From contig JAYKHS010000014.1 in assembly GCA_035285865.1 (NCBI GenBank), forward strand, positions 64,001 to 128,000: a DNA stretch of 64,000 nt, in the 5' to 3' direction. This stretch comes from Candidatus Sericytochromatia bacterium (GTDB lineage Bacteria; Cyanobacteriota; Sericytochromatia; S15B-MN24; VGJW01). Shown here piece by piece: positions 6,643-19,800 of the stretch. Numbering within the stretch: the stretch's first letter is position 1; every line of letters begins with the position of its first letter. The notes under the pieces are model-generated. The model did not search any database, was not told the DNA's origin, and saw only the letters and a program-made list of their open reading frames with translations. The translations under genes and the position numbers were made by a program.

Positions 6643-6851
6643 ACGACGCCCCCGAACTTCATGGAACCTCGCTTGCGCCGACGTCGCGGCGGCGTCGGGT
6701 CCGGCTCGCCCAGGCTGTCGAGCGGCGTCCAGCCGCACTCCGGGCACTTGGCCGTTTCGAGACGGATGGGATTCGCGTCCGTCGCCGTCACGGTGAAGGT
6801 ATGCTGGCAGCGACGGCAGCAGAAGGTGTAGGTGACGTGCTCCTGCGCCAT
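6639..6851 (-). CDS. small zinc-ribbon protein (70 aa)
   Basis: YTFCCRRCQHTF...AKCPECG, basic tail; abuts the ABC ATPase. Confidence 0.7.
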   Translation of the reverse strand: MAQEHVTYTFCCRRCQHTFTVTATDANPIRLETAKCPECGWTPLDSLGEPDPTPPRRRRKRGSMKFGGVV

Positions 6852-6871
6852 GATGGGGAGAAGTCTAGCAG

Positions 6872-7825
6872 ATGGACGCGCAACAACTGGTGACGGCTGT
6901 CCCTGGCTGCGGACCGTCCCGACCCGTGGGCATGCTCCGGGTCGAGGGCACGGAGGCCGCCGCGTTCCTCAATGGCTACACGACCCAGGAGGTCGCCACG
7001 CTGGTCCCCGGCGAGGTCCGGCTGGGCGCCATCACCGACTGGAAGGGCCAGGTGACGGATGTCGTGACCTTCGCGGGCCTGACGGATGCGGTGCTGGTCT
7101 CGGGCAGTCCAGGTCGTGCAGCAGAAGTCCACAAGGGCCTGCGGCGCTACCTGCTGGGCGTCGATGTCCGGCTCATGCCCGTGAGCGGTTGGCTGGCCCT
7201 CGAGTTGGACCCTGGGGCACGCCCGATGCCCGCGGTTCTCGAGGATACCGGGGCCATTGCCGCCGTACTCGGTCTCTCGGGGGTGCCGGGAGTCCGGGCG
7301 GTGCTGCTCGGTGCGGTCACGCCCTCCGCAGGCCCCGCTGCGCGGTTGCTCGTCCCCGAGGGTGATCTCCCTGCCTGGGGTGAGGCGATTCGGGCCGCCG
7401 GGTGGTCGTCGCGAGACCAGGAAACCTTCGACCGCCAGCGGATCCGATCGGGCTGGCCGGAGCCGGACCGGGATCTGCCGGCGGCCTGCAATCCCTGGGA
7501 GGCGCGGCTCGCACCCTTCGTCCGCATGGACAAGGGCTGCTATCTGGGCCAGGAAGTCGTGGCCCGCCTGATCAACTACAAGCGCGTCCAGCGCTGGTTG
7601 ATGGGCACCCGGTCCACGGCGGCCGTCCCCGAGGGCACGCCCCTCCTTTCCGGTGAGGAAACGGTCGGTCGCATGGGCTCGTCCGTCCCGGATGCGGCGG
7701 GCCAATGGGTGGGCCTTGCCCTCGTCGGGGCTGCCTTGGCGGTGCCCGGCGCTGTCGTCCGGACAGCCGAGGGGCAGGAACTGACGCTTGAGGAGCGGCC
7801 CCTGTGGGCCGGGATCACGGATTGA
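6872..7825 (+). CDS. ygfZ: folate-binding YgfZ/GcvT-family protein
   Basis: DKGCYLGQEVVAR signature; FLNGYTTQ N-terminal region. Confidence 0.88.
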   Translation: MDAQQLVTAVPGCGPSRPVGMLRVEGTEAAAFLNGYTTQEVATLVPGEVRLGAITDWKGQVTDVVTFAGLTDAVLVSGSPGRAAEVHKGLRRYLLGVDVRLMPVSGWLALELDPGARPMPAVLEDTGAIAAVLGLSGVPGVRAVLLGAVTPSAGPAARLLVPEGDLPAWGEAIRAAGWSSRDQETFDRQRIRSGWPEPDRDLPAACNPWEARLAPFVRMDKGCYLGQEVVARLINYKRVQRWLMGTRSTAAVPEGTPLLSGEETVGRMGSSVPDAAGQWVGLALVGAALAVPGAVVRTAEGQELTLEERPLWAGITD

Positions 7826-8477
7826 GGCGTGATCGCAGCCAACGGATGCCGAGGATGCCGGCCAGAAGGGTAAGCTGACGCCAGTCCGCCCGGGCCGCGA
7901 CATGCGGCGAACGGGCCCGGGAGGAGGGGCCGGCATGTTGTCCTGCGGTCCCGGAGGCCACGGTCCACGACACCGCCACCGCCGGCATGCCCTTGAAGCA
8001 ACCGGTGTCGCCCGAGGCCGGATCGTGGACGAGGGCAAACTGCCAGGGTTGGCGGAAGTGGTGCGCGTGCGTGTGCTGATCCGTGCCCGAAAGGAAGACG
8101 CCAAGGCCGGGATGCGTGTGGTACCAGCCGACCACGGCAAGCTCCGGAGCTTCCCTCGCCATCCGCGCCAGCAGGGCGTCCCACGTTTGCGGGGTGAAGG
8201 CAAGATGCACGCCGGAGCCCAGGGTGTCGGGAGCCTCGAAGGCCGTGGTGGCCTCGATCAGCGTGTCGGTGGCGTCATGGTGGACCTTGCCGAGCAGCAG
8301 GCCGCCCACCTCGCAGGAAGGTGACGCGGCCCCATGCCGTTCGATCAGGGCCAGGCAGGAAGCGTGCAGCACCACCGACGCGGATGAGGCTGACGGCCCC
8401 AGCGCACGCCGCCGCCCGGCCGGGTCTGTCGCGGCCTCGACCCACGGATCGGGCGTGGTCTCGCGCCACTCGATCAC
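7815..8477 (-). CDS. JAB/JAMM (Mov34/MPN/PAD-1) metalloprotease, putative deubiquitinase or Ubl-processing enzyme
   Basis: EVGGLLLG...VVGWYHTHPGLGVFLSGTD, complete E...HxHx7Sx2D motif; GTG start. Confidence 0.9.
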   Translation of the reverse strand: MIEWRETTPDPWVEAATDPAGRRRALGPSASSASVVLHASCLALIERHGAASPSCEVGGLLLGKVHHDATDTLIEATTAFEAPDTLGSGVHLAFTPQTWDALLARMAREAPELAVVGWYHTHPGLGVFLSGTDQHTHAHHFRQPWQFALVHDPASGDTGCFKGMPAVAVSWTVASGTAGQHAGPSSRARSPHVAARADWRQLTLLAGILGIRWLRSRLNP

Positions 8478-8481
8478 GGCG

Positions 8482-8997
8482 TCAGACGTCCCGCCATTCG
8501 AGGCGCGGCTTTGCGACCTCGGTGGCTTCTGCCGGTCCGGGCCGATCGGCCAGCGGAAACAGGTCCGGATGGGCTTCGTACCAGTCCGCGGCCTCGCCGT
8601 TCGCTGCGCTGTCGAAGTCGAAGAGCTGCGGATCGCAACGCAGGATGTCGATCAGCCGCATCACGAGGTCGCCCAGGGTCTCCCCGACCATCCAGCGCGA
8701 TCCCAAGCAGAACGTGCCGTTGGCGAAGACATGGGGATGGAAGACCGGCGACAAGGCCCGGACGATCGGTGCCTCGAGCGGATAGGCCGAGGTCAGTCGG
8801 ATCTCGATGCGGTGCTGTTCGCGGCGGACCGGGGTTTCGCCATCCAGCTTCTCGATGGCGGGCATCGTCAGGCGGATGAGGTGCCTGTCAGGCGGGGTGC
8901 CTTGCGATTGCAGGACCTCGACCACCGTCGGCAGTGTTTTCGCCACGGCGGCCAGCGCCCGGGCATCGGCATCGAGGCGACGTCGGCGGGCCTCCAT
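8482..8997 (-). CDS. ubiquitin-conjugating enzyme (E2/UBC fold)
   Basis: YPLEAPIV...PVFHPHVFANGTFCLG..W....TLGDLV...AANGEAADWY; catalytic Cys present. Confidence 0.88.
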   Translation of the reverse strand: MEARRRRLDADARALAAVAKTLPTVVEVLQSQGTPPDRHLIRLTMPAIEKLDGETPVRREQHRIEIRLTSAYPLEAPIVRALSPVFHPHVFANGTFCLGSRWMVGETLGDLVMRLIDILRCDPQLFDFDSAANGEAADWYEAHPDLFPLADRPGPAEATEVAKPRLEWRDV

Positions 8998-8998
8998 C

Positions 8999-9259
8999 TC
9001 AGGCCCCGGCCTCCAGCAGCGGCACCACTTCGAGCAGGTCTCCGCTCTGGACGCCGCAGGGCCCGAGCGCACCTTGCGCGGGCAACTGTCGGCCAAGGCG
9101 GACGCAACGCAGCATGAAGTCGGTGTCGCGCGGCAGGCGCCAGTTCTGACGGCTGGCCTCGATCAGCTCCTCGACCGTGTAGTCGATGGGCAGCCGGACT
9201 TCGGCCTGCCGCGACTTGTCGAGGGTCCGAATGGTCACGGCAATCACGTCGTCGTCCAC
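8999..9259 (-). CDS. ubiquitin-like beta-grasp protein (EsaB/YukD-like, 86 aa)
   Basis: IAVTIRTLD...EVRLPIDYTVEELI...LGPCGVQSGDLLEVVPLLEAGA; AGGAGG SD before GTG; lies between E1 and E2. Confidence 0.8.
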   Translation of the reverse strand: MDDDVIAVTIRTLDKSRQAEVRLPIDYTVEELIEASRQNWRLPRDTDFMLRCVRLGRQLPAQGALGPCGVQSGDLLEVVPLLEAGA

Positions 9260-9263
9260 GGAT

Positions 9264-10406
9264 TCATTCCTCCTGAATCCATGATGCCCCACAGGCGACC
9301 CACTGCGTCGTCAGATCCGCGATGCCGATCACGTGACCGGCAACCAGGCCCCACTCCGCAAGAGTGCGGTCCCGGTTCGGGGTCGTACCGTCGATGGCCT
9401 CGAGGGTCGTGACCCAGCGCTCCTCGTGGCATCCCGGGCAGGCTGCATCCCGTCGGGAAACCCGCGCCACCGGAGCCAGCACGGCCTCTTCGGTGGCACA
9501 TGTCCTGCACTCTAGGCTCACGGCCACCGCGAAGGGCAGCAGGATGCGCCGGTCCGCGTGACCGGCCAGCAGGTCCGTCGGCCGGATGGCCTCGGGTGCC
9601 GGTCCCTGCGCGAGGTCCGGCAGGCATCCGTGCTCGGGGCAGGACTCGGTTTCGGGCAGCAGGTCCTCGAGAAGGACGGGCGGATGGAGTTGTAGGGTCC
9701 GGCGCGTGCCCGCCGCCATCGGGGTCCATGTCGGAAACGCGAGGGCCAGGACCTGGTCCACCAGCATGGCTCCGGCCAGGGAGGCCGTCACGGCAGTGGT
9801 GGGCACGGCCGTTCCCGAGGATTCGCGCAGCAGACCGGCACAACTGCGGGACGCCTGCAGGCGGCGTTGCATGCCGGGGGTCATGCCGCAGGCGTAGCAG
9901 GCACCTGTCGTCCCGTCCCCGTAGCGGCTGACCTGGCACGCCTCGGCAGACAGCCCTCCGTCCAGATAGGGCACGCCCGCCCGCAGGCAGAGGCGGTTCA
10001 GGGCAAGGCGCGCTCCGACGGAGTCGAGGCAGCCGATGACTGCGTCGGCCTTTCGGACCGTCGCGATGCCGAGGTCTGTCCCCACGTCCCCGATCACCGC
10101 CTCCACATGCAGGCCGGGAGACAGTTCGCGCAGGCGTTCGGCCGCGACGAGGGCCTTTGGGCGGCCGAGATCGTCCGTGCGGAAAAGCACCGAGCGCACC
10201 AGGTTGCTGGCCTCGATGCGATCGCGGTCGAGGACGAGCACCTGCCCCACCCCGACCAGGGCCAGACCCTTCAGAACCTCGTTGCCGAGCGCTCCCGCAC
10301 CCGCCACGATGATCCGGGTCCGGGCCAGTCGCTCCGTGTCCCAGCCGGAAATCAGGCGATGGCGGGCGTGTCGGTCCCGCTCCGGCAGGGGGAAGGCGTC
10401 GCTCAC
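9264..10406 (-). CDS. ThiF/E1-like ubiquitin-activating enzyme
   Basis: GAGALGNE, DRDRIEASNLVRSVLF, CLDSVGAR, CYAC, SC (putative catalytic Cys), CPEH, extra CRTC/CPGC ribbon, TLAEWGL C-terminal domain. Confidence 0.9.
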   Translation of the reverse strand: MSDAFPLPERDRHARHRLISGWDTERLARTRIIVAGAGALGNEVLKGLALVGVGQVLVLDRDRIEASNLVRSVLFRTDDLGRPKALVAAERLRELSPGLHVEAVIGDVGTDLGIATVRKADAVIGCLDSVGARLALNRLCLRAGVPYLDGGLSAEACQVSRYGDGTTGACYACGMTPGMQRRLQASRSCAGLLRESSGTAVPTTAVTASLAGAMLVDQVLALAFPTWTPMAAGTRRTLQLHPPVLLEDLLPETESCPEHGCLPDLAQGPAPEAIRPTDLLAGHADRRILLPFAVAVSLECRTCATEEAVLAPVARVSRRDAACPGCHEERWVTTLEAIDGTTPNRDRTLAEWGLVAGHVIGIADLTTQWVACGASWIQEE

Positions 10407-11068
10407 GCGTCACCCGCTCCGTTCAGCGTGATCTGCTCGGGCGACTTGGGCAGGATCTCGAGCCCGTATGCGGGATGATCCCGCAGCAGTCCGCGGACCC
10501 GGACGTACCGGCCGACCCAGTCCTCGAACCGGTGTCCGGCCTGCTCCCAGCGCTCGAGGTCTCCGCTGAACACGACCAGTTTGAAACCGTCGAAGGGATT
10601 TCTGCTGGCGTGGAACTTGATGAAGTGGGTGCCGGTGGCCCGCGAGACCTGATGACCCAGCACCCGCCCCTCGAAGACCACGACGGTGTTGGCATGGCCC
10701 TCGAGGTCCGAGAGGCCCAGCACGCGCTCGGCCTGCCGATCCCCCGCGACGAGTGCCACCTGCCCGGGTTGGCCCAGTACCTGCCAGGACATGCCCGAGG
10801 TCTGCCGGCAGTTGACGCAGGCACCCGCATTGTGGGTCTGGAGGAAGGTCCACGAACTGGGGTGGTAGCCGGTCTGGCAGTGGGTGCACAGGACGATGCG
10901 GGCCCCGGGGACAAGCGGTGTCCCGTCGAGGGGATCGTGTGCCGTGCCGCCGGATTGCCCGAAGCTCACGGGCCGCGCGGGCTCGGGTCCTTCCTCGCCG
11001 GGTTCCGGCGGGGCACCGTTGTCCCGCCATTCGAGCGGGCGTCGCCCCCTAGAGGGTGGGGACGTCAT
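10403..11068 (-). CDS. RING/PHD-like zinc finger plus OB-fold protein (candidate E3)
   Basis: DPLDG..L..G..IVLCTHCQTGYHPSSW...GACVNC, then OB-like VVVFEGRV...FKLVVF...WVGRYVRVRG...LEI. Confidence 0.65.
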   Translation of the reverse strand: MTSPPSRGRRPLEWRDNGAPPEPGEEGPEPARPVSFGQSGGTAHDPLDGTPLVPGARIVLCTHCQTGYHPSSWTFLQTHNAGACVNCRQTSGMSWQVLGQPGQVALVAGDRQAERVLGLSDLEGHANTVVVFEGRVLGHQVSRATGTHFIKFHASRNPFDGFKLVVFSGDLERWEQAGHRFEDWVGRYVRVRGLLRDHPAYGLEILPKSPEQITLNGAGDA

Positions 11069-11540
11069 GTCGCCAGCCTTCGCGCCAGTCGGGCAGGTTC
11101 GGGCGACCGTCGACCGTCAGCGCGATCCCGGTGTCCCCCAGCAACTCGACGGTGATCGGTTGGTCCTGCTCCTTGCCCTGGAGCAGGTCGGCACGGACCC
11201 AGAAGGCACTGCCCCCCAGTTGCAGGGAGACCCAGCCTTCGAGCGTATCGCTTCCGCCAAGCTTCCCCATGACGCAGCGCACCTTGCCGCGGCCCAGATC
11301 TCCCTGAATGACGGAACGGCGCGCTTCGATGCGGCGCCAGGCCCACCAGGAGGGGATCAGGGCAAGCACCCCGGGGAAGAGCCATCCGGGCTCGCGTGAC
11401 CAGGCGGCCGCGCAAGCAGGCAGCAAGGTCGGCAACCACGCCGCACGGCCGGCCCACCGGAGCCAGGTCATTCGTTGGCGCAGGTGGCGCCGCTCCTCGT
11501 TCGTCAGGCTGCGCTGCGAGGTGAGGAATGCCGCCTTCAC
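11049..11540 (-). CDS. hypothetical membrane protein (1-2 TM)
   Basis: hydrophobic AAWLPTLLPACAAAW and WLFPGVLALIPSWWAW; GTGA overlap with the upstream gene. Confidence 0.6.
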   Translation of the reverse strand: MKAAFLTSQRSLTNEERRHLRQRMTWLRWAGRAAWLPTLLPACAAAWSREPGWLFPGVLALIPSWWAWRRIEARRSVIQGDLGRGKVRCVMGKLGGSDTLEGWVSLQLGGSAFWVRADLLQGKEQDQPITVELLGDTGIALTVDGRPNLPDWREGWRHDVPTL

Positions 11541-12220
11541 GGCAACAGGCCCTCGGCACGGCACGCTTCGATGAAGCGCGTGGCACGGCCCGGATCAGGG
11601 AACGCCATGCGTCGGGTCAGGGCAGGCTCTGCGCTCTGGCCGGACTCGACCATGCCACAGCGCCTGTAGAAGAGGTCCGAGCCCGATTTCAGCAACGCGT
11701 CCAGCACCAGGGCTGCCTCGAGGCGCGAGGCCTCGTAGAGGGAGGCGACAAGCAGGAGCTTGCCGATGCCCTTCAGCGGCGAACCCGGCAGGCGCTCGAG
11801 GTATCGGACCTCGAGCACGGGCACCGGGCCACTGCGGTCCATCCCGACGGCGACTCCACCCACGATGCGCCGGGCCGTACCGCCGGGGTCGAGCAACTCG
11901 ACGACCATCAGGCTCGAGGCCTTGCCGAAATCCACGTGGCCCTTGACGTCGCGTCCCGACGCGCGGCCGAGGGCCAGCCCGACCCAGTCGAACCAGGTGG
12001 GCTCCGGCCAACGTGCGAAGACCTGCGCGTCCTCCGGTCGGCCCCTGCGGATGACCACAGGTACGGGCACACCGTCCGGGCCTGTCAGCGCGGCCATCTC
12101 GATCAGCCCCGCAGGGCGTGCCTGGCCGATCAGCGATCCGGTCGACGTGCGTTCGCCGGGACGCCCCGGTCCCTTGGCCTTCCGGGACTTCCGGCGCTTG
12201 AAGAGCCTGGAGAGCCACAT
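11537..12220 (-). CDS. GNAT-family acetyltransferase-like protein
   Basis: LEVRYLER...KGIGKLLL (motif A-like) and LFYRRCGM (motif B-like). Confidence 0.65.
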   Translation of the reverse strand: MWLSRLFKRRKSRKAKGPGRPGERTSTGSLIGQARPAGLIEMAALTGPDGVPVPVVIRRGRPEDAQVFARWPEPTWFDWVGLALGRASGRDVKGHVDFGKASSLMVVELLDPGGTARRIVGGVAVGMDRSGPVPVLEVRYLERLPGSPLKGIGKLLLVASLYEASRLEAALVLDALLKSGSDLFYRRCGMVESGQSAEPALTRRMAFPDPGRATRFIEACRAEGLLP

Positions 12221-12275: not shown

Positions 12276-12284
12276 TGATACGAT
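12276..12284 (+). promoter_or_regulatory. extended -10 candidate TGATACGAT
   Basis: TGnTAnnnT upstream of AGGAG and ATG 12314. Confidence 0.4.
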
Positions 12285-12313
12285 CGCAACGTCCCAGTCA
12301 AAGGAGTCCGGGC

Positions 12314-12907
12314 ATGCTTCTGGCCGCTACCCTGGCGTCTGCCATGCAGATGCCCTTCTTGACCGACCTGCTCGAGGGCTTCAGTCCCGCGCCGGATCCG
12401 GACGGAGAGGGCATCGTCGTGCGCATCCGTGACACGGAGCGGGATTCCATGAAGATCGTCCAGGGCCAGATCAACGCACCGGTCCCCCCTGCGGTGCTCT
12501 GGAGCGTCATCACCGACTACGAGGCCTATCCGCGAATCTTCGACCGATATCGGAAGATGGAGATCCTCGAGAAATCGGGGAGCTGGGAACTGCATCGGTC
12601 CGAGGTCGATTATCCGATCTTCGGTTCGCGCTGGGTCTCCAACGTGCTCCAGCACGATCGGCCCGGCTTGAAGATCCGCTTCCAGCGCGCCGAGGGCACC
12701 ATCAAGCAGGTCGAGGGCGTCTGGACCTTGAAGGAGACGGCCCCGGGACGTTCGATGATGCGTTACGCGGTGCGTTTGGACCCGGGCCTGCCTTTCGTCC
12801 CGAGCTGGGTCGTCACTTGGGGGACCCAGACGATGATGCCCTCCATCCTGCGTTCGGTGGCCAACGAGGCCGTCAAGCGCCACCGCGCGACCGCCAAGGC
12901 CAGCTGA
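12314..12907 (+). CDS. SRPBCC/START-like (polyketide cyclase/CoQ-binding) family protein
   Basis: INAPVPPAVLWSVITDYEAYP...IRFQRAEGTIKQVEGVWTL...RYAVRLDPGLPFVPSW. Confidence 0.8.
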   Translation: MLLAATLASAMQMPFLTDLLEGFSPAPDPDGEGIVVRIRDTERDSMKIVQGQINAPVPPAVLWSVITDYEAYPRIFDRYRKMEILEKSGSWELHRSEVDYPIFGSRWVSNVLQHDRPGLKIRFQRAEGTIKQVEGVWTLKETAPGRSMMRYAVRLDPGLPFVPSWVVTWGTQTMMPSILRSVANEAVKRHRATAKAS

Positions 12908-13691
12908 GTCGGATCCAGCGGGCCAGCGACCGACCGCCGCCGCCGCCGTGGCGGATGCGCAGGTCGTGCAGCCGGTTGACCGAAGGCAGCGCGGGGCGGC
13001 CCTTGCCATCAAGGAAAGCCGCATCCAGCGCGTCGGCCTGCCAGCGGCAGGCATAGGCTTCGATGTCCTTGCGCCAGGCGTCGCGCACGGCGTAAGAGCC
13101 GTAGGTCCTGCACAGCAGGGGGCGGACGGGGTGGATGCTGCAGCGGTCGTCCTCGAGGAACGGGCACGACAGGTTCAGTGCTCCGGGCCGCAGATGCAGG
13201 TTCCACGGCAGCCGCATCACGCGTTCCGCCAACCACAAGGCAAGTCCATGGGGGCCGTGAGTCCTCCGGTATCGTGCAGCGAAGCGGTGCCGTGCCGCGT
13301 CGTCCCAGTTGGCCTCGACCCAGTCGCGGATGGCCTCCCACTCCCGGGGCAACACGAGGAAGTAGGCGGTCGGGTACGTGCAGCAGCCACTGCAGCCCTC
13401 CCGGCAGCGACTTTCGGGGTAGGCCGCGGCCACCCCCGCCGAAATCCTGTCGGCTAGCCGGTAGAGCGCTTGCAAGGCACGGGAGGGACGCCAGCCAGGT
13501 GCCTCGAGCGCATTCATCTCCAGCCGCGCCTCTCCCAAGGCACGGGCCAGCGGAGCGAATTCGGGCCTTCCTCCCAGCATCGGCAGCGGCAGGTAGGTGG
13601 CCGGAGGGGCCTTGGCACGCTCGCGAACGAGTATCTCCCCGAAGGACGCGTCGCTGTCGGAGTTCTGCGGGAATTCGAAGTCGGAATTCAT
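12873..13691 (-). CDS. YkgJ-family cysteine-cluster protein
   Basis: CREGCSGCC, CPFLEDDRCSIHPVRPLLCRTYG. Confidence 0.85.
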   Translation of the reverse strand: MNSDFEFPQNSDSDASFGEILVRERAKAPPATYLPLPMLGGRPEFAPLARALGEARLEMNALEAPGWRPSRALQALYRLADRISAGVAAAYPESRCREGCSGCCTYPTAYFLVLPREWEAIRDWVEANWDDAARHRFAARYRRTHGPHGLALWLAERVMRLPWNLHLRPGALNLSCPFLEDDRCSIHPVRPLLCRTYGSYAVRDAWRKDIEAYACRWQADALDAAFLDGKGRPALPSVNRLHDLRIRHGGGGGRSLARWIRLSWPWRSRGGA

Positions 13692-13735
13692 CTGGTCTTT
13701 ACCGGATTCGGTCAGGGTTGGCCGATGACCATGGC

Positions 13736-15721
13736 ATGGTCCGTTCTGCCTCGCCCGCGAGGCCATGGTACGCCCCCGCCCGCGCCGGTGGGCTCGTGGC
13801 CATGTTCGCGCTGTCGGCCTGCACCCGCGGGGTGCCGGGCACGGTGCCTGCCGCGTGGCCTGCTGCGGCGCGGGTCGCGCCCCTCGCGCAGGGTGAGCGG
13901 GAACTGGTCCTCGAGCTGGTCGCGTCCTTGCCGCAGGCCGAACCCGAGGCCGTGCGCGCGCTGGGCGGCACGGCTGCGGGCCGTGAGGTTCTGGTCCAGT
14001 TCGCGGACGGACGCCTGCACGACCTTCCCGGAGCCGTCCGGGTGGCTCCGAGCCTTGTGCCGGGGCTGGGGCGCTATCGCCTCTCCGCGGCTCTGGATGC
14101 CGCCACGATGCAACGGTGGGGAGCGTCCGCGCCGCTGGCCTATGCAGAGCCGGTGCATCGCCTTTCCATCACCGGAAGCCGTGTGCAGGCTGCCGCGCAG
14201 CGCGTCGGGCCCAACGATCCCGGTCTGAATACCGCCTGGGGCTATGCCCGGGTGGGCGGAGGCGAGCTCTGGGCGCGTGGCGTACGGCCACAGAGTCCGG
14301 TGATCGTCGCCGTGGTCGACACCGGCGTGGATGCCGCGCATGAGGATCTCAAGGGTGTGGTGCTGGCGGGGCGGAACCTGGTCCAGCCCGGGCAGGCGCC
14401 TTACGACAAGCATGGCCATGGCACGCACTGCGCCGGAGTCATTGCCGCGCTGGCCGACAACGGCAAGGGAATCGCCGGTGTGGCCGCGGGTGTCCGCATC
14501 ATGCCGATCAAGGCTCTCGGGGATGACGGGTCCGGCGAGGACCCGGTGCTGGTCGATGCAATCGAGGCCGCCGTCAGCGGCGGTGCCAAGGTCATCAGCA
14601 TGTCTCTGGGTACCGACCAGGACCTGATCTCGGTCCGTCGCGCGATTCAGTCGGCGGTTGCCAAGGGCGTGGTCATCGTGTCTTCGTCCGGCAACCAGGG
14701 AGCCGAGCAGGCGCTCTACCCGGCCCGCTACCCGGAAGTCATCGCCGTAGGCGCCACCGACCTCGACGACATGCGGGCCACCTTCTCGAACGACGATCGC
14801 AACGTCCGTCTCACGGCACCGGGTGTCGTCATCCGCTCCACGGTCCCCGGGGGGTACGACTACATGTCGGGTACCAGCATGGCGGCTCCACACGTCTCGG
14901 CGGCCTTTGCCTTCATGGCGAGCCTCCGTCCCGACATGAGTCCGTCCGCCGTGATGGACCTGCTGGTCAGGACAGGGGCTCGGGTTTCGGGGTTCTCGCA
15001 CAAGGCCGTGGGTCTGGATCTGCTGCGTGCGGCCCATGAAGCCGGCCTGCCCGTCGGCGCCCTGCCGACTCCGGATCCGAATGCTCCGACGCCCGGACCC
15101 GATCCGGATCCCGGACCCGATCTGCCTCCCGGCGATGATCCCGCGACGCCTCCACCCGGGTCCGGCGGTAGCGTGCCCATGCCCGACTGGGGTGACGTCG
15201 CCCTGCCCGGCTTCGGCGGGGGTGGTTCGGGCCCGGCACCCGGCCCCTCGGCCGCTCCGGTCCCGGGCGTGGGAGCCCCCGGCTTCGACTGGGTTCCGCT
15301 GCCGTCCTTCGGTGGCAACCCCACATCCGGCGCTTCCGATCGCCAGGCCACTGTGCCGGCGGCAGAGGCGCTCTCGGACCTCGACCGGGGCCGTGCGGCT
15401 CTGCTCGACGTCTTCGCCTCCCGCACGGATCTGGAGGCCTTCGATGCCGAAGCGGCGCGCCTCGCACGGGTCGGGGCGCTGGCACCGGGCTCCACTCAGA
15501 AGGCCGTCATCCGCGATCTGCAGAAGGCCCTCCGCCTGCAAGGGGCGGCCGTGCGCGAGTCCGGCAGTTTCGACGAGGCGACGGCAGCTGCAGTCGTCGC
15601 CTGGAAGCGGCAGCACGGGCTCCATGAGCCGTTCCGGGATGCCCGGGGCGAATGGGCCGTTCGGCCGAGCGTGGACCTGGACCTCTTCGGCCGCATCGTC
15701 CTGGCGTCCGTAGGCAATTAG
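13736..15721 (+). CDS. S8 subtilisin-like serine protease lipoprotein with Pro-rich linker and putative peptidoglycan-binding C-terminus
   Basis: lipobox LSAC; VAVVDTG, HGHGTHCAG, SSGN, SGTSMAAPH; IRDLQKAL...GSFDEATAAAVVAWKRQHGL. Confidence 0.9.
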   Translation: MVRSASPARPWYAPARAGGLVAMFALSACTRGVPGTVPAAWPAAARVAPLAQGERELVLELVASLPQAEPEAVRALGGTAAGREVLVQFADGRLHDLPGAVRVAPSLVPGLGRYRLSAALDAATMQRWGASAPLAYAEPVHRLSITGSRVQAAAQRVGPNDPGLNTAWGYARVGGGELWARGVRPQSPVIVAVVDTGVDAAHEDLKGVVLAGRNLVQPGQAPYDKHGHGTHCAGVIAALADNGKGIAGVAAGVRIMPIKALGDDGSGEDPVLVDAIEAAVSGGAKVISMSLGTDQDLISVRRAIQSAVAKGVVIVSSSGNQGAEQALYPARYPEVIAVGATDLDDMRATFSNDDRNVRLTAPGVVIRSTVPGGYDYMSGTSMAAPHVSAAFAFMASLRPDMSPSAVMDLLVRTGARVSGFSHKAVGLDLLRAAHEAGLPVGALPTPDPNAPTPGPDPDPGPDLPPGDDPATPPPGSGGSVPMPDWGDVALPGFGGGGSGPAPGPSAAPVPGVGAPGFDWVPLPSFGGNPTSGASDRQATVPAAEALSDLDRGRAALLDVFASRTDLEAFDAEAARLARVGALAPGSTQKAVIRDLQKALRLQGAAVRESGSFDEATAAAVVAWKRQHGLHEPFRDARGEWAVRPSVDLDLFGRIVLASVGN

Positions 15722-15730
15722 TCGGAGGCG

Positions 15731-16042
15731 ATGGTGGCGCCCCGTCGGCTCGACTTTCTTCTGGAGCTAGCCCCGGGCGGAGATGCGCGCGCCCCCGGCG
15801 GAGCCGTCACGTGCGCGCTCTGTGGCCACTGGGATCACCCGCCCCCTTGCCGCTGGCCCCATGAGACCCGGACGGAGGTCCGCGAGTCAGGTCTCGCGGT
15901 CACGGTCACGGTGACGTGCCCGGATGCCGAGTGGCCCGAGGTCGCGGAACGCGTCCGCTCCGCACTTGTCAGGGGCGAGCAGGCGGGTCCCGACGGCCGT
16001 ATGTCCTGCTGGGCCGTGGTTGCGGAGTCCTCGGAACAATAG
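15731..16042 (+). CDS. hypothetical protein (103 aa)
   Basis: GGAGG SD; PGGAVTCALCGHWDHPPPCRWPH Cys/His cluster. Confidence 0.7.
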   Translation: MVAPRRLDFLLELAPGGDARAPGGAVTCALCGHWDHPPPCRWPHETRTEVRESGLAVTVTVTCPDAEWPEVAERVRSALVRGEQAGPDGRMSCWAVVAESSEQ

Positions 16043-16140
16043 ATCTGCAAGTGCCGCGTGCCCGAGATCAAGTGGCAACTCAGGGCGCTGTAGTCCAGCA
16101 ACCTTGGTCACGTCACCAGTGCCTTGATGATTGCATGGCT

Positions 16141-16641
16141 CTATCGTCGGTCCAGTTTCTCAAAGCGGTGGCGTTGCCAAGGCTTGAATTTCAAATGCTC
16201 TTCGTCCAGCCTTCTGTTCACTGAATTCAGTGCGTCATTGATGTAATTTTCAAGCTCAGAGAATTTTTTTTGCGAAATTATTTTCTGTGTTGGGGAAAGG
16301 TTGTCGAACTTCTTATAATAAGGATTCGCTAGCTCGTAAAATCTGATACCATACCAAGATCTTTTGAGCTTTACTGCGTTAAAGGTCTCAAAGGTGCTCG
16401 GATATTGAGCCAGGAGGTCTTCTACTTGTGGCTTCAGTTCGCTTATGGCGTTATCGAAGATTGTCTTGCTGCTTCTTGTTCTAGGTGAACGATTTGCTTG
16501 AGTTGCCACGGGCGGGTCTACAAAGGTTGTGGTCTTTGCTGCCTCGCACCCTTTCGGCCCTACATTCAAGGCGATTGCAAGCAACACGCACTTCGTGACA
16601 TCATTCCCAAGCGCGTTCTTCATGTAGTCAAGAATCCCCAC
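16141..16641 (-). CDS. low-GC orphan protein (166 aa)
   Basis: 500-nt open frame in AT-rich DNA where chance ORFs are short; start may be ATG 16623. Confidence 0.6.
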   Translation of the reverse strand: MGILDYMKNALGNDVTKCVLLAIALNVGPKGCEAAKTTTFVDPPVATQANRSPRTRSSKTIFDNAISELKPQVEDLLAQYPSTFETFNAVKLKRSWYGIRFYELANPYYKKFDNLSPTQKIISQKKFSELENYINDALNSVNRRLDEEHLKFKPWQRHRFEKLDRR

Positions 16642-16661
16642 TTCAGTTCAAGGATAGGTCG

Positions 16662-16699
16662 AATTGCTGCATTTGAGCAATTTGATCATTCGATGATCA
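16662..16699. promoter_or_regulatory. two abutting palindromes AATTGCT-N7-AGCAATT and TGATCAT-N3-ATGATCA
   Basis: read directly; between the low-GC orphan and metH. Confidence 0.45.
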
Positions 16700-16851
16700 T
16701 GGAAGACCATTGGTGGGTCTGTGATGGCGAAAGGCAGGCCGGACTCGTCTCGAGGTACTTGATCGGTTGCTCACCTGCTCGGATCGATGGGCCGCGCGCC
16801 GTGTAGGATCATCCCCATCCCTCGACAGGAAGGCATGCCGGCTAGCCTCTG

Positions 16852-19800
16852 ATGCACCCCTACCTCGCCGCTCTGGAACAGCGCGTGCTCGTCTTCGACG
16901 GTGGCATGGGCACGATGTTGCAACCCTTGGAGCTGACGCCCGACGACTACCAGGGGTTGGCCGGCTGCCCCGAGATCCTCGTGGCAAGCCGTCCGGACGT
17001 CATCCGGCAGGTGCACCGCGCCTACCTCGAGGCCGGTGCGGATGTCGTGGAGACCAACACCTTCGGAGGCAACCGCCTGAAGCTGGCCGAGTGGGGACTC
17101 GGGGAACGGGTGCACGAGATCAACGTGGCCGCGGCCCGTCTTGCGCGCGAGATGGCCGATGCATTCGCGGCGCCGGACAGACCGCGCTTCGTGGCGGGTT
17201 CGATCGGTCCTACCGGCATGCTGCCCTCGTCCGGGGATCCGGTCCTGGGTGCGATAGGCTTCGAGGCGCTGGCCGACATCTTCCGGGAGCAGGCGCTGGC
17301 GCTGATGGACGGGGGATGCGATCTGTTGCTGGTCGAGACCGCTCAGGACATCCTCGAGGTTCGCGCGGCCATCGCGGGCATCCGCAGGGCCTTCGCCGCG
17401 GCGGGGCGTACCTTGCCGCTGCAGGTCCAGGTCACCCTCGACACGACGGGCCGGATGCTGCTGGGCACGGACATCGGTGCCGCCCTCGCGATCATCGGGG
17501 CCTTGCCCGTCGATGTGGTGGGCCTGAACTGTGCCACCGGGCCGGACGCGATGCGGGAGCCGGTGGCCCTGCTGGCCGAGCGCTCCACGCGGCCGGTCAG
17601 CATCCTGCCCAATGCCGGCCTGCCCCTCAATGTCGACGGCAAGGCCGTCTATCCGCTGGAACCCGAGCCGATGGCGCACATCCTCGCCGAGTACGTCTCG
17701 CGCTACGGTGTGCGAGTGGTCGGCGGCTGCTGCGGCACGACTCCGGCGCATATCCGGGCCTTGGTCGCGGCGGTGGCGCACTTGCCGCCGCAGCCGCGAC
17801 CGGGGTCCAGTCCGGCCCACGTGGCCAGCGCCATGCGCGCCGTGGCCCTTGATCAGGAGCCCGCCCCCCTGCTGGTCGGGGAGCGCCTGAACGCCCAGGG
17901 CAGCCGCAAGGTCAAGCAGTTGCTGCTGGACGGGGATGATGACGGGCTGGTGCAGGTCGCCCGACAGCAGGTGGCTGCGGGGGCTCATGTGCTGGACGTC
18001 TGCGTCGCCCTGACCGAGCGTGCGGACGAGGCCCAGACGATGGCGCGCGTGGTGGGTGCCTTGTCTCGAGGCGTCGAGGCGCCCCTGATGATCGATTCGA
18101 CCGAGCCCGCGGTCCTGCGGGAAGCGCTGCGTGCGTGCCCCGGTCGGGCCATCGTCAACTCGGTCCACCTCGAGAACGGCCGGACCCGGATCGACACTGT
18201 CCTGCCGGACGTGCTCGAGCATGGTGCCGCCGTCGTCGCCCTGACGATCGACGAGGAGGGCATGGCCCGCTCTGCGGATCGCAAGCTGGCCGTGGCGGCG
18301 CGCATCCATGACCTTTGCGTGGCCGGGCATGGCCTTGCCTCCGATGCCCTCATCGTGGATACGCTGACCTTCACGTTGGCGACGGGGGACCCCGAGTATG
18401 CCCGGTCCGCGCTCGAGACGATCGACGGCATTCGTCGGGTCAAGGAGGCCTTGCCGGGCGTCCGGACCATCCTCGGTGTCTCGAACGTGTCCTTCGGGCT
18501 GGGGGCAGAGGCCCGCAAGGTCGTCAACGCAGTCTTTCTGCATCATGCCGTGCGGGCCGGCCTGGACATGGCCATCGTCCATCCCGATCACGTGTTGCCG
18601 CTCCACGAGATGCCTGACGAGGCCCGGGAACTGGCCGAGGACCTCGTGCTGGCGCGCCGGGAAGATGCCCTGCCTCGTCTGATTGCCTGGTTCGATCGGG
18701 CGGAAGGTGTGCCCGTGGCCGGCAACGCGAGGGCCTCCGGGAGCGACGCGGGCACCGCCGAGGAGCGTATCCACCGGCAGATCGTCGAACGGCGACGCGA
18801 GGGCATCGAGACCCTGCTCGACGAGGTCCTCGCGCGTCGCAGCGCCGTGTCGGTCCTGAACGAGGTGCTGCTGCCCGCGATGAAGGAAGTGGGGGATCGC
18901 TTCGGTGCCGGCGAGCTGATCCTGCCGTTCGTCCTGCAGTCGGCCGAGGTCATGAAGCGTGCCGTGGCCCATGTGGAGCCGCATCTGGATCGCGTCGACG
19001 GGGTCACGAAGGGGACGGTGGTGCTGGCGACCGTCTTCGGGGATGTCCACGACATCGGCAAGAACCTCGTCCACGTGATTCTGGCCAACAACGGCTACAC
19101 GGTGCACGACCTGGGCAAGCAAGTGCCCGTGCAGACGATCCTGGATCGGGCCCGCGAGCTGGGAGCCGATGCGATCGGCCTCTCCGCCCTGCTGGTCTCG
19201 ACCTCGAAGCAGATGCCGATCTGCGTCGAGGAAGCCCACCGACAGGGCCTGCACCTGCCCATCCTGATCGGGGGCGCCGCCATCAATCCGTCCTTCGGTC
19301 GGCGGGTCGCCCTGCTGCCGGACGGGCAGCCCTATCCCGCGGGGGTCTACTATGCCCGGGATGCCTTCGAGGGCCTGTCGCTGCTGGATCGCCTGACGGA
19401 CCCCGAGCGCCGCGAGGCCTTGGTCGGCGAGGTCCGGGAGGCGGCGCTTGCCGCGGCGGAACGGCCAGAGCGTCCATCTGCGCCGGTCGTCCGGGTCGGC
19501 AGGTCCGCAGTGCCGGTCCAGGATGTGCTGCCGGAGCCGCCGTTCTGGGGAGCCCGCGCCTTGGACGACGTGCCCTTGGATGATCTCTTCGATCTGCTGG
19601 ATCGCGACAGCCTGTTCCGGCTTTCCTGGGGCGGTCGCGGCACCAAGGGCGAAGCATGGGATCGGTTGGTGGAGGACACGTTCGTGCCGCGGCTCCGGCG
19701 CTTCCGGGCAGAGTTGCGATCGGCGTCCTGGGTCCGTCCTCGTGCGGTTTTCGGCTTCTATGCCTGTGTGGCCGAAGGGGATGCCATCGTGGTCTATCCC

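Follow-up and report, generated by a model that had tools for sequence, protein, structure and literature searches.

What kind of system is encoded by a compact run of genes resembling a whole ubiquitylation pathway in the chromosome of a non-photosynthetic relative of the cyanobacteria? The question is raised by an operon at positions 7815-12220 of a 64,000-nucleotide stretch (throughout, the window) of contig JAYKHS010000014.1 from a Candidatus Sericytochromatia bacterium, whose metagenome-assembled genome (MAG) measures 2.82 Mb and is 82.7% complete. Read as open reading frames (ORFs), the operon consists of seven minus-strand genes (Table 1) that encode, in order, a GNAT-like protein, a putative transmembrane (TM) protein, a protein joining a zinc domain to an OB fold (Zn+OB protein), an E1, a ubiquitin-like modifier (Ubl), an E2 and a JAB peptidase. 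An initial annotation had proposed a complete E1, Ubl, E2 and JAMM set together with a candidate E3, and all five parts were recovered here. We consider it probable that the operon is a chromosomally resident ubiquitin-like conjugation system of the prokaryotic E1/E2/RING/JAB kind.

The seven genes are present in the order first described and are as tightly packed as had been claimed, with junctions, measured stop to start, ranging from -20 to +4 nt: -20 nt for TM/Zn+OB, -4 nt for Zn+OB/E1, +4 nt for E1/Ubl, +1 nt for Ubl/E2 and +4 nt for E2/JAB. The GNAT and TM genes abut or overlap, depending on which GTG start is taken, that of the TM protein lying at 11564 or 11540.

Core enzymes

The E1 matches Pfam ThiF with a score of 150 bits (7e-44; cut-off 28.1). 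In an alignment of nine orthologues, from which that of L021 was left out (L numbers are labels of related loci, f1 denotes the host family and g4 the genus of L005), the sequence GxGAxGNE, R71, D128 and the S188-C189 pair are invariant. Comparison with proteins of solved structure places UBA7, UBA1 and NAE1 first (2e-25 to 1e-21), followed by ThiF at 3e-18 and MoeB at 6e-16. The E2, the product of the sole UQ_con gene of the host genome, scores 34.1 bits against that Pfam model (cut-off 27), and its closest solved relatives are Rad6/UBE2A-B (5e-8). The pattern YP...HP[HN]...C97 is conserved across 23 sequences, the window copy reading HPH. Its start was refined to the ATG at 8997, giving the N-terminus MEARRRRL that is common to orthologues P0016 and P0017.

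The JAB protein matches Pfam JAB (PF01398) at 43.6 bits (cut-off 22.5) and Prok-JAB at 32.6 bits. In its sequence, EVGG and HTHPGLGVFLSGTD align with the motif of PSMD14 and the E...HxH...S..D signature is intact; the best solved matches are PSMD14/Rpn11 (4e-12) and the Rpn11-like protein of Caldiarchaeum, CsRpn11 (6fjv; 1.5e-11). The catalytic residues reported as intact at the outset, namely the E1 loop with Cys189, Cys97 of the E2 and the JAMM residues, stand up to these orthologue and PSMD14 alignments. By sequence, E1, E2 and JAB are closest to eukaryotic and Caldiarchaeum proteins and not to sulfur-carrier enzymes. Within the collection of models in PADLOC, the operon proteins yield only weak, generic matches, to E1, E2 and JAB, and none for the Ubl, Zn+OB, TM and GNAT proteins.

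A separate observation concerns the C-terminal part of the JAB protein, which forms an Arg/Trp-rich helix (DWRQ..LAGILG.RWLR) that is kept within the genus but that more distant orthologues lack. A role at the membrane surface or in binding a partner is possible.

The ubiquitin-like modifier

The Ubl was originally described as a ubiquitin-like protein, a reading to be given up were it not of the beta-grasp type, and several lines of sequence comparison agree with it. The protein reaches the Pfam YukD model at the cut-off (27.1-27.6 bits, cut-off 27), and 14 of the 17 family members match that model. Searching the PDB with a profile built from the 17 Ubls brings up chains of the ubiquitin family, namely a designed ubiquitin (7.9e-7), ubiquilin (0.012) and ubiquitin (0.02), followed by YukD (0.064) and the Caldiarchaeum Ubl (0.065); the scores of polyubiquitin in this search are inflated by repeats. 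The protein starts at a GTG (9259) preceded by AGGAGG, L001 having an ATG at the same place.

No other gene of the operon is so well conserved. Identity to the L001 orthologue is 92% for the Ubl, compared with 73% for E1 and 63% for JAB, and in L004 it is still 75%, the other operon genes there falling to 42-49%. The C-terminus reads P-L-L-E-A-G, followed among ten distinct close relatives by A, G, RA, QK or tails of 12 residues, the L004 form having such a tail. The glycine (Gly85) is invariant, between 0 and 15 residues following it among the relatives; five metagenomic loci encode a protein with this Gly as its last residue. Because residues follow the conserved Gly, we read the window protein as a predicted pro-form bearing one extra Ala.

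The candidate E3

Following a disordered N-terminus, the Zn+OB protein is composed of a zinc domain and an OB fold (Table 1). The AlphaFold2 (AF2) model of the whole protein has a pLDDT of 79, and that of the Zn domain alone 91. Trust levels in the fold searches were E<=0.001 for Foldseek and a Z of 8. With Foldseek the OB half matches aminoacyl-tRNA synthetase anticodon-binding domains, Stn1 and RPA (E ~1e-4) so that, as modelled, this OB fold is of the nucleic-acid type. The Foldseek list for the Zn domain is headed almost wholly by RING and U-box structures (best E 0.098), and a VIA fold search, independent of Foldseek, places Ring1b, RNF4, a U-box, the Slx1 RING and TRAF6 at the top with Z of 6.4-5.8. 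Among the residues of the domain, C61, C84 and C87 are fully conserved and C64 and H69 almost fully, and there is a conserved S-W pair. A canonical RING finger is a binuclear treble clef with eight zinc ligands; the models point, weakly, to a half-RING situated between RING and U-box, and not to a canonical binuclear RING. U-box E3s work without any zinc.

The Zn domain keeps company with the E2. Strong matches to it (E<=1e-14) were found in 13 of 401 genomes of the phylum, all 13 of which also have a UQ_con protein, on the same contig in 12 cases; eight weak matches (E 2e-4 to 5e-4, in frames of 620-840 aa) were excluded, since they are probably zinc fingers without relation to it. The module fused to the domain varies. 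It is an OB fold at the window locus, HIRAN (5e-14) in L019, from a sister family, and a TM helix, coiled coil and PPC-like end in L024, from a low-GC cyanobacterium, while L028 has a second, different copy of 165 aa. Varied C-terminal modules of this sort make a pattern typical of E3 adaptors. HIRAN was also considered as a general partner and rejected, none of 18 metagenomic Zn proteins matching it at E<=0.01.

Complex prediction weakly supports a pairing of the E2 with the Zn domain: the score was 0.42, where the best of three controls gave 0.00, with at least 92% of contacts agreeing between runs and a partner pLDDT of at least 83. Of 157 solved complexes 116 attain the mark used, and of 215 mismatched pairs two do; passes at 0.60 or below comprise only 18 of the 157 solved complexes, plus both passing mismatches. 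The pass may also merely reflect likeness to solved RING-E2 complexes.

Full-length homologues of the Zn+OB protein are few, 14 among 5.8 billion proteins, and the five of these that carry the name of a source come from Sericytochromatia or Cyanobacteria MAGs. Separately, a sediment metagenome contig (L049) carries, downstream of a Zn+OB-E1-Ubl-E2-JAB cassette, a second gene (6830-7633, plus strand) for a protein joining Zn_Ribbon_1 to an OB domain of tRNA_anti-codon type, the latter matching PF01336 at 1.1e-5.

Accessory genes

The identities first given to the remaining operon genes stood in part. The GNAT-like protein finds no match in Pfam (even at E<=5), NCBIfam or PADLOC. In the Atlas structure comparison all ten matches listed are GNAT acetyltransferases, with TM scores of 0.55-0.60 by query, and the motifs SxLxGxG and FYxxCG are invariant in six orthologues; the acyl-CoA pyrophosphate loop of GNAT enzymes reads Q/RxxGxG/A. 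Fold comparison and motifs thus speak for the GNAT label and the family models do not, and the first operon gene is predicted on the former basis to encode a divergent GNAT-fold acyltransferase. A homologue is present in six of the seven other f1 genomes, always beside the operon, with one weak match elsewhere.

For the TM protein, searches of Pfam (even at E<=5), NCBIfam, PADLOC and Atlas returned no family. It had been called a membrane protein, to which the window copy itself, being weakly hydrophobic (Kyte-Doolittle maximum 1.06), lends little, but the L005 and L028 orthologues reach 1.9-2.2 in two clear hydrophobic segments. From the orthologues, the protein is a probable two-helix membrane hairpin. 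It is present in three of the four genera of the host family.

An eighth component, absent from the initial annotation and lying beyond the coordinates given there, is probably encoded by the CxxCxxCC gene (Table 1), whose product matches Pfam PF03692 at 28.2 bits (cut-off 23) and no NCBIfam model. Its homologue adjoins the operon in L001, L003, L004, L006 and L028, and in L005 (genus g4) CxxCxxCC and JAB domains are fused within a single 417-aa open frame. Directly after that fusion gene, L005 also has a gene (7921-8766, plus strand) for a DUF4388 protein (2.5e-12).

Distribution

Matches to UQ_con occur in 16 of the 401 phylum genomes, 14 of them above the cut-off. All seven other sampled genomes of the host family have both the E2 and the Zn domain, and flanking genes are syntenic in L001-L004; one flank carries an ABC-2 transporter and YgfZ, the opposite flank CxxCxxCC and an S8 peptidase. 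Related cassettes are sporadic in other cyanobacterial families.

Wider searches found 367 members of the E2 subfamily at E<=1e-10, and 1126 at E<=1e-3, among 1.84 billion representatives. A metagenome scan with the E2 alignment returned 80 loci, of which 33 hold E1, Ubl, E2 and JAB. Fifteen of these 33 complete loci encode a Zn+OB protein, mostly just upstream of the E1, 12 a Zn-only protein, and in the remaining six neither was detected. The fusion of zinc domain and OB fold, part of the architecture that was not recognised at first, therefore is not unique, and the core order Zn(+OB)-E1-Ubl-E2-JAB recurs across metagenomes. The GNAT, TM and CxxCxxCC genes appear in only three metagenomic loci, all close relatives of the window, and they are the only parts specific to its lineage.

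The low-GC cyanobacterial relative L024 differs in its arrangement. There JAB forms the C-terminal half of a 431-aa protein (9947-11242, plus strand), the N-terminal half of which is a weak tblastn match to E2, perhaps as an inactive domain of UEV type. Ahead of the E1 gene lies a small gene for a zinc ribbon.

Genomic setting

The window has a G+C content (GC) of about 69%. Values of 0.68-0.71 over the operon region lie within the 0.65-0.73 found around it, and MnmG, IspF, ETF-QO, MetH and MTHFR are among the neighbours, so that host-like composition and housekeeping surroundings, both noted originally, were borne out. With the locus present in seven of seven other family genomes and its flanks conserved, the suggestion that it is resident and not a recent island also holds. 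An Rfam search of the window gave no match. A scan for promoters and terminators gave nothing resembling a promoter, and its single terminator-like site lies on the opposite strand (mean in shuffled sequences, 2.2).

Table 1. Features of the operon and its neighbourhood (window positions).
Feature	Position	Strand	Basis
GNAT-like protein, 227 aa, first operon gene	11537..12220	-	fold comparison and motifs
Small protein, probable two-helix membrane hairpin with ~90-aa C-terminal domain	11049..11564	-	hydropathy of orthologues
Zn+OB candidate E3, 221 aa	10403..11068	-	AF2 model, Foldseek, Prok-RING_1 below cut-off
Zn domain of Zn+OB protein, residues ~45-100	10769-10936		
OB fold of Zn+OB protein, residues ~110-216	10421-10741		
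Stand-alone E1, 380 aa, ThiF adenylation domain, catalytic Cys189, Cys-rich C-terminal part	9264..10406	-	Pfam ThiF
Ubiquitin-like modifier, 86 aa, predicted pro-form ending LLEAG-A	8999..9259	-	Pfam YukD
UBC-type E2, 171 aa, HPH motif, catalytic Cys97	8482..8997	-	Pfam UQ_con
Rpn11-like JAMM metallopeptidase, 220 aa, Arg/Trp-rich C-terminal helix	7815..8477	-	Pfam JAB
Arg/Trp-rich helix of JAB protein, residues ~165-220	7815-7990		
CxxCxxCC (PF03692) cysteine-cluster protein	12873..13766	-	Pfam
SRPBCC/polyketide-cyclase-fold gene	12278-12907	+	PF03364, 5.5e-15
S8 subtilase, possible peptidoglycan-binding end	13178-15721	+	PF01471, 0.0059
YgfZ-like gene, convergent with JAB	6872-7825	+	neighbour gene
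166-aa ORF in low-GC stretch	16141-16641	-	

Several features of the neighbourhood deserve mention in their own right. The SRPBCC gene is divergent from the operon, between it and the CxxCxxCC gene, and L001, L003 and L005 each have a homologue with that divergent placement; an NCBIfam search of its product gave no match. START-domain genes have been listed beside the Ubl RnfH (Iyer 2006). The S8 subtilase is a syntenic neighbour in L001, L003 and L004, and at the other end the JAB stop overlaps the end of the convergent YgfZ-like gene by 11 nt. Upstream of MetH, GC falls to 0.52-0.59 at window positions 15500-17000, being about 0.69 elsewhere. The ORF in this stretch (Table 1) has no family match, and an Rfam search of the stretch gave none either, with no cobalamin riboswitch even at E<=0.1.

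Proposed mechanism and alternatives

From the parts present, their catalytic residues, their linkage and their conservation we infer each biochemical step, and the target, as follows. The JAMM peptidase would mature the pro-Ubl by taking off the residue that follows its conserved Gly (LLEAG|A). The E1 would adenylate that Gly and take the Ubl as a thioester on Cys189, from where it would pass to Cys97 of the UBC-type E2. The Zn+OB protein would act as an adaptor E3 of RING/U-box type, its zinc domain docking the charged E2 (E2~Ubl) and its OB fold selecting the place or target, the most likely candidates being single-stranded nucleic acid or a protein bound there. The same JAMM peptidase would later remove the tag. 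The three accessory products (GNAT-fold enzyme, membrane hairpin and CxxCxxCC) may be lineage-specific regulators or partners; for the GNAT, acylation of amines that compete with tagging is a possible role.

A more specific version can be offered tentatively, although we think it rather unlikely in full. It would have vertically inherited, nucleic-acid-guided tagging in which the half-RING E3 docks through OB or HIRAN modules on single-stranded DNA, 3' ends or RNA and directs E2~Ubl, as a bacterial counterpart of Rad6-Rad18/HLTF, control being added by GNAT acylation (lysine or N-terminal) and by a CxxCxxCC partner of the deconjugase.

A number of observations weigh against the operon being an E1/E2/RING/JAB system that works in this way. 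The fold matches of the Zn domain lie under the trust levels in both searches. The domain scores 19.7 bits against the Pfam model Prok-RING_1, where the cut-off is 29.1, and keeps four conserved cysteines (C61, C64, C84 and C87), amounting to one zinc site. Of the RING-OB fusion proposed in the initial annotation, the OB fold is retained and a canonical RING is not, the likeness to RING/U-box folds being weak. Prok-RING_1 itself reportedly has its source in Burroughs, Iyer and Aravind (Mol Biosyst 2011). The E2 has HPH where the canonical motif is HPN, and six of the 33 complete metagenomic loci are those in which no Zn-domain gene was detected. The link to nucleic acids rests on fold class and one lineage with a HIRAN fusion, and OB folds bind proteins and sugars too. 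A proteasome link was dropped, the 82.7%-complete genome having no match to PF00227 (proteasome family), which leaves degradation without an obvious route.

Some of these same points suit an alternative in which the cascade is real and the Zn+OB protein is not its E3, being instead the main substrate, a nucleic-acid-binding regulator or a scaffold, with the E2 transferring the Ubl directly. A single zinc site, a score below the Prok-RING_1 cut-off, and the weakness of both fold matches and E2 complex prediction would all be accommodated, and the Caldiarchaeum E2 auto-ubiquitylates without an E3, according to the portion of PMC5654768 available. Fusion of the Zn domain to unrelated modules and its linkage to the E2 in 13 of 13 genomes are harder to explain in this way, and the number of zinc sites loses force when U-box E3s need no zinc at all. 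We regard this alternative as improbable. A quite unlikely alternative too, in our view, is anti-phage or anti-plasmid defence in the manner of Bil, the cascade tagging an invader protein or sensing invader nucleic acid via OB or HIRAN. Among bacterial E1/E2/Ubl/JAB operons, a role has been demonstrated by experiment for Bil and CBASS type II alone, both of them defence systems (PMC11601603), OB and HIRAN modules could sense foreign DNA, and the scattered occurrence of related cassettes in other cyanobacterial families is as might be expected of a defence system. Yet PADLOC gives 16.2 bits for BilC and 21.6 bits for BilD with no match for BilA or BilB, and returns generic ABC and subtilase domain matches only among the neighbours. 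Those neighbours are housekeeping genes, and the presence of the locus throughout the sampled family, its conserved flanks and host-like GC are unlike a mobile defence island. The PADLOC check put forward in the initial annotation thus ends with Bil models that barely match and an operon outside any defence island.

Least probable by far is a sulfur-carrier or cofactor module like ThiS/MoaD-ThiF/MoeB, possibly linked to the Fe-S related CxxCxxCC and YgfZ genes. It has in its favour that the E1 does match ThiF and MoeB models and that a cysteine-cluster protein and a YgfZ-like gene adjoin the operon. The NCBIfam scores are, however, far below their cut-offs (ThiF 111 against 275 bits, MoeB 90.5 against 266), a second ThiF-family gene is found elsewhere in the host genome, and a family search of the neighbours revealed no adjacent thiamine or molybdenum cofactor (Moco) genes. 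A UBC E2, an Rpn11-like JAB and a RING-like protein would be unexpected in such a module. The Ubl, predicted to be a pro-form with residues after its Gly, also speaks against it. A tie to sulfur-carrier biosynthesis, named early on as one finding that would overturn a ubiquitin-like reading, was accordingly not seen.

If the operon is the conjugation system that we favour, its interest is several-fold. The variant is compact, mostly soluble and fixed across a Sericytochromatia family, which are practical advantages. E3 candidates with nucleic-acid-type modules give a concrete, testable idea of what such systems act on, and fresh clues to a possible regulation of tagging come from the JAB-CxxCxxCC fusion and from the operon-specific GNAT. 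The locus also supplies a bacterial data point for the debate on the origin of the eukaryotic ubiquitin system.

Comparison with known systems

The architecture had at first gone unrecognised. As far as the accessible parts of the sources extend, it agrees with the prokaryotic E1/E2/RING/JAB class, whose prediction dates from 2011, when Burroughs et al. described mobile bacterial operons with E1, E2, sometimes E3, and JAB, some of them complete (PMC3417536, PMC5654768). In those accounts, the class and the window have in common a separate ThiF-type E1, a UBC E2, a JAB, a YukD-like Ubl and a small zinc-finger E3 candidate, with parts closer to eukaryotic proteins than are those of Bil, Bub or CBASS. 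Among features of the class, the window has the stand-alone E1, the UBC E2, the JAMM peptidase and the YukD-like Ubl with C-terminal Gly; an eight-ligand RING, or membership of Prok-RING_1, is not among them. Set beside the class as the citing papers portray it, the window Zn domain differs in being soluble, OB-fused, provided with one zinc site and too low-scoring for the Prok-RING_1 cut-off. The operon has a GNAT, a membrane hairpin and a CxxCxxCC partner in addition, and the system is fixed in one Sericytochromatia family and not sporadic. On that partial view of the 2011 work, then, the general kind of operon was already known from prediction, and what stands apart here is the OB-fused half-RING, the operon-specific GNAT, the link between JAB and CxxCxxCC, and family-wide fixation. 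Our literature search found no bench study of a bacterial RING-containing E1/E2/JAB operon, and no relevant study on Sericytochromatia and ubiquitin or on Prok-RING/PF14446; as far as that search showed, bacterial E1/E2/RING/JAB operons remain computational predictions.

The bacterial families that have been tested are CBASS type II, Bil types I and II, and Bub types I and II (PMC11601603). Like the window, Bil has its Ubl, E2, JAB and E1 encoded by individual genes of a single operon (PMC11601603), but it is without a RING-type component and is found in defence contexts, whereas the window locus lies among housekeeping genes; on the PADLOC scores given above, an identity with Bil was rejected. 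So was CBASS type II, the window E1 and E2 being separate with the Ubl between them and only partial, low-scoring matches to E1-E2 fusions being found, in a comparison where CD-NTase was not searched for. Bub combines a fused Ubl-E2 or E2-E1 with a DUF6527 serine protease (PMC11601603); it too was set aside, there being no fusions in the operon and no match to DUF6527 among its seven proteins.

Rad6-Rad18/HLTF is a eukaryotic pathway, and HLTF carries a HIRAN domain. The window E2 has as its best solved match a minimal E2 of the Rad6 kind, and in both cases RING-type E3s or E3 candidates bear DNA-binding-type modules, HIRAN, as in HLTF, being found in the sister-family operon. This is an analogy of architecture only, and a PCNA-like target and DNA binding are not part of the likeness.

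A close parallel in function is archaeal. The counterpart in Candidatus Caldiarchaeum subterraneum has been reconstituted in vitro (PMC5654768), and its Ub, E1, E2, small RING and Rpn11 perform, so far as the available part of that paper describes them, the same five functions as those predicted here. There too the Ub is a pro-form, a nine-residue tail being trimmed by the Rpn11 homologue (PMC5654768), although, in the same account, this tail follows a di-glycine end, whereas the window Ubl has EAG and one further residue. The Caldiarchaeum srfp is portrayed as a stand-alone small RING, in contrast to the window E3 candidate, which carries an OB fold. By that description the Caldiarchaeum system is archaeal and reconstituted, and that of the window bacterial and predicted from its genes.

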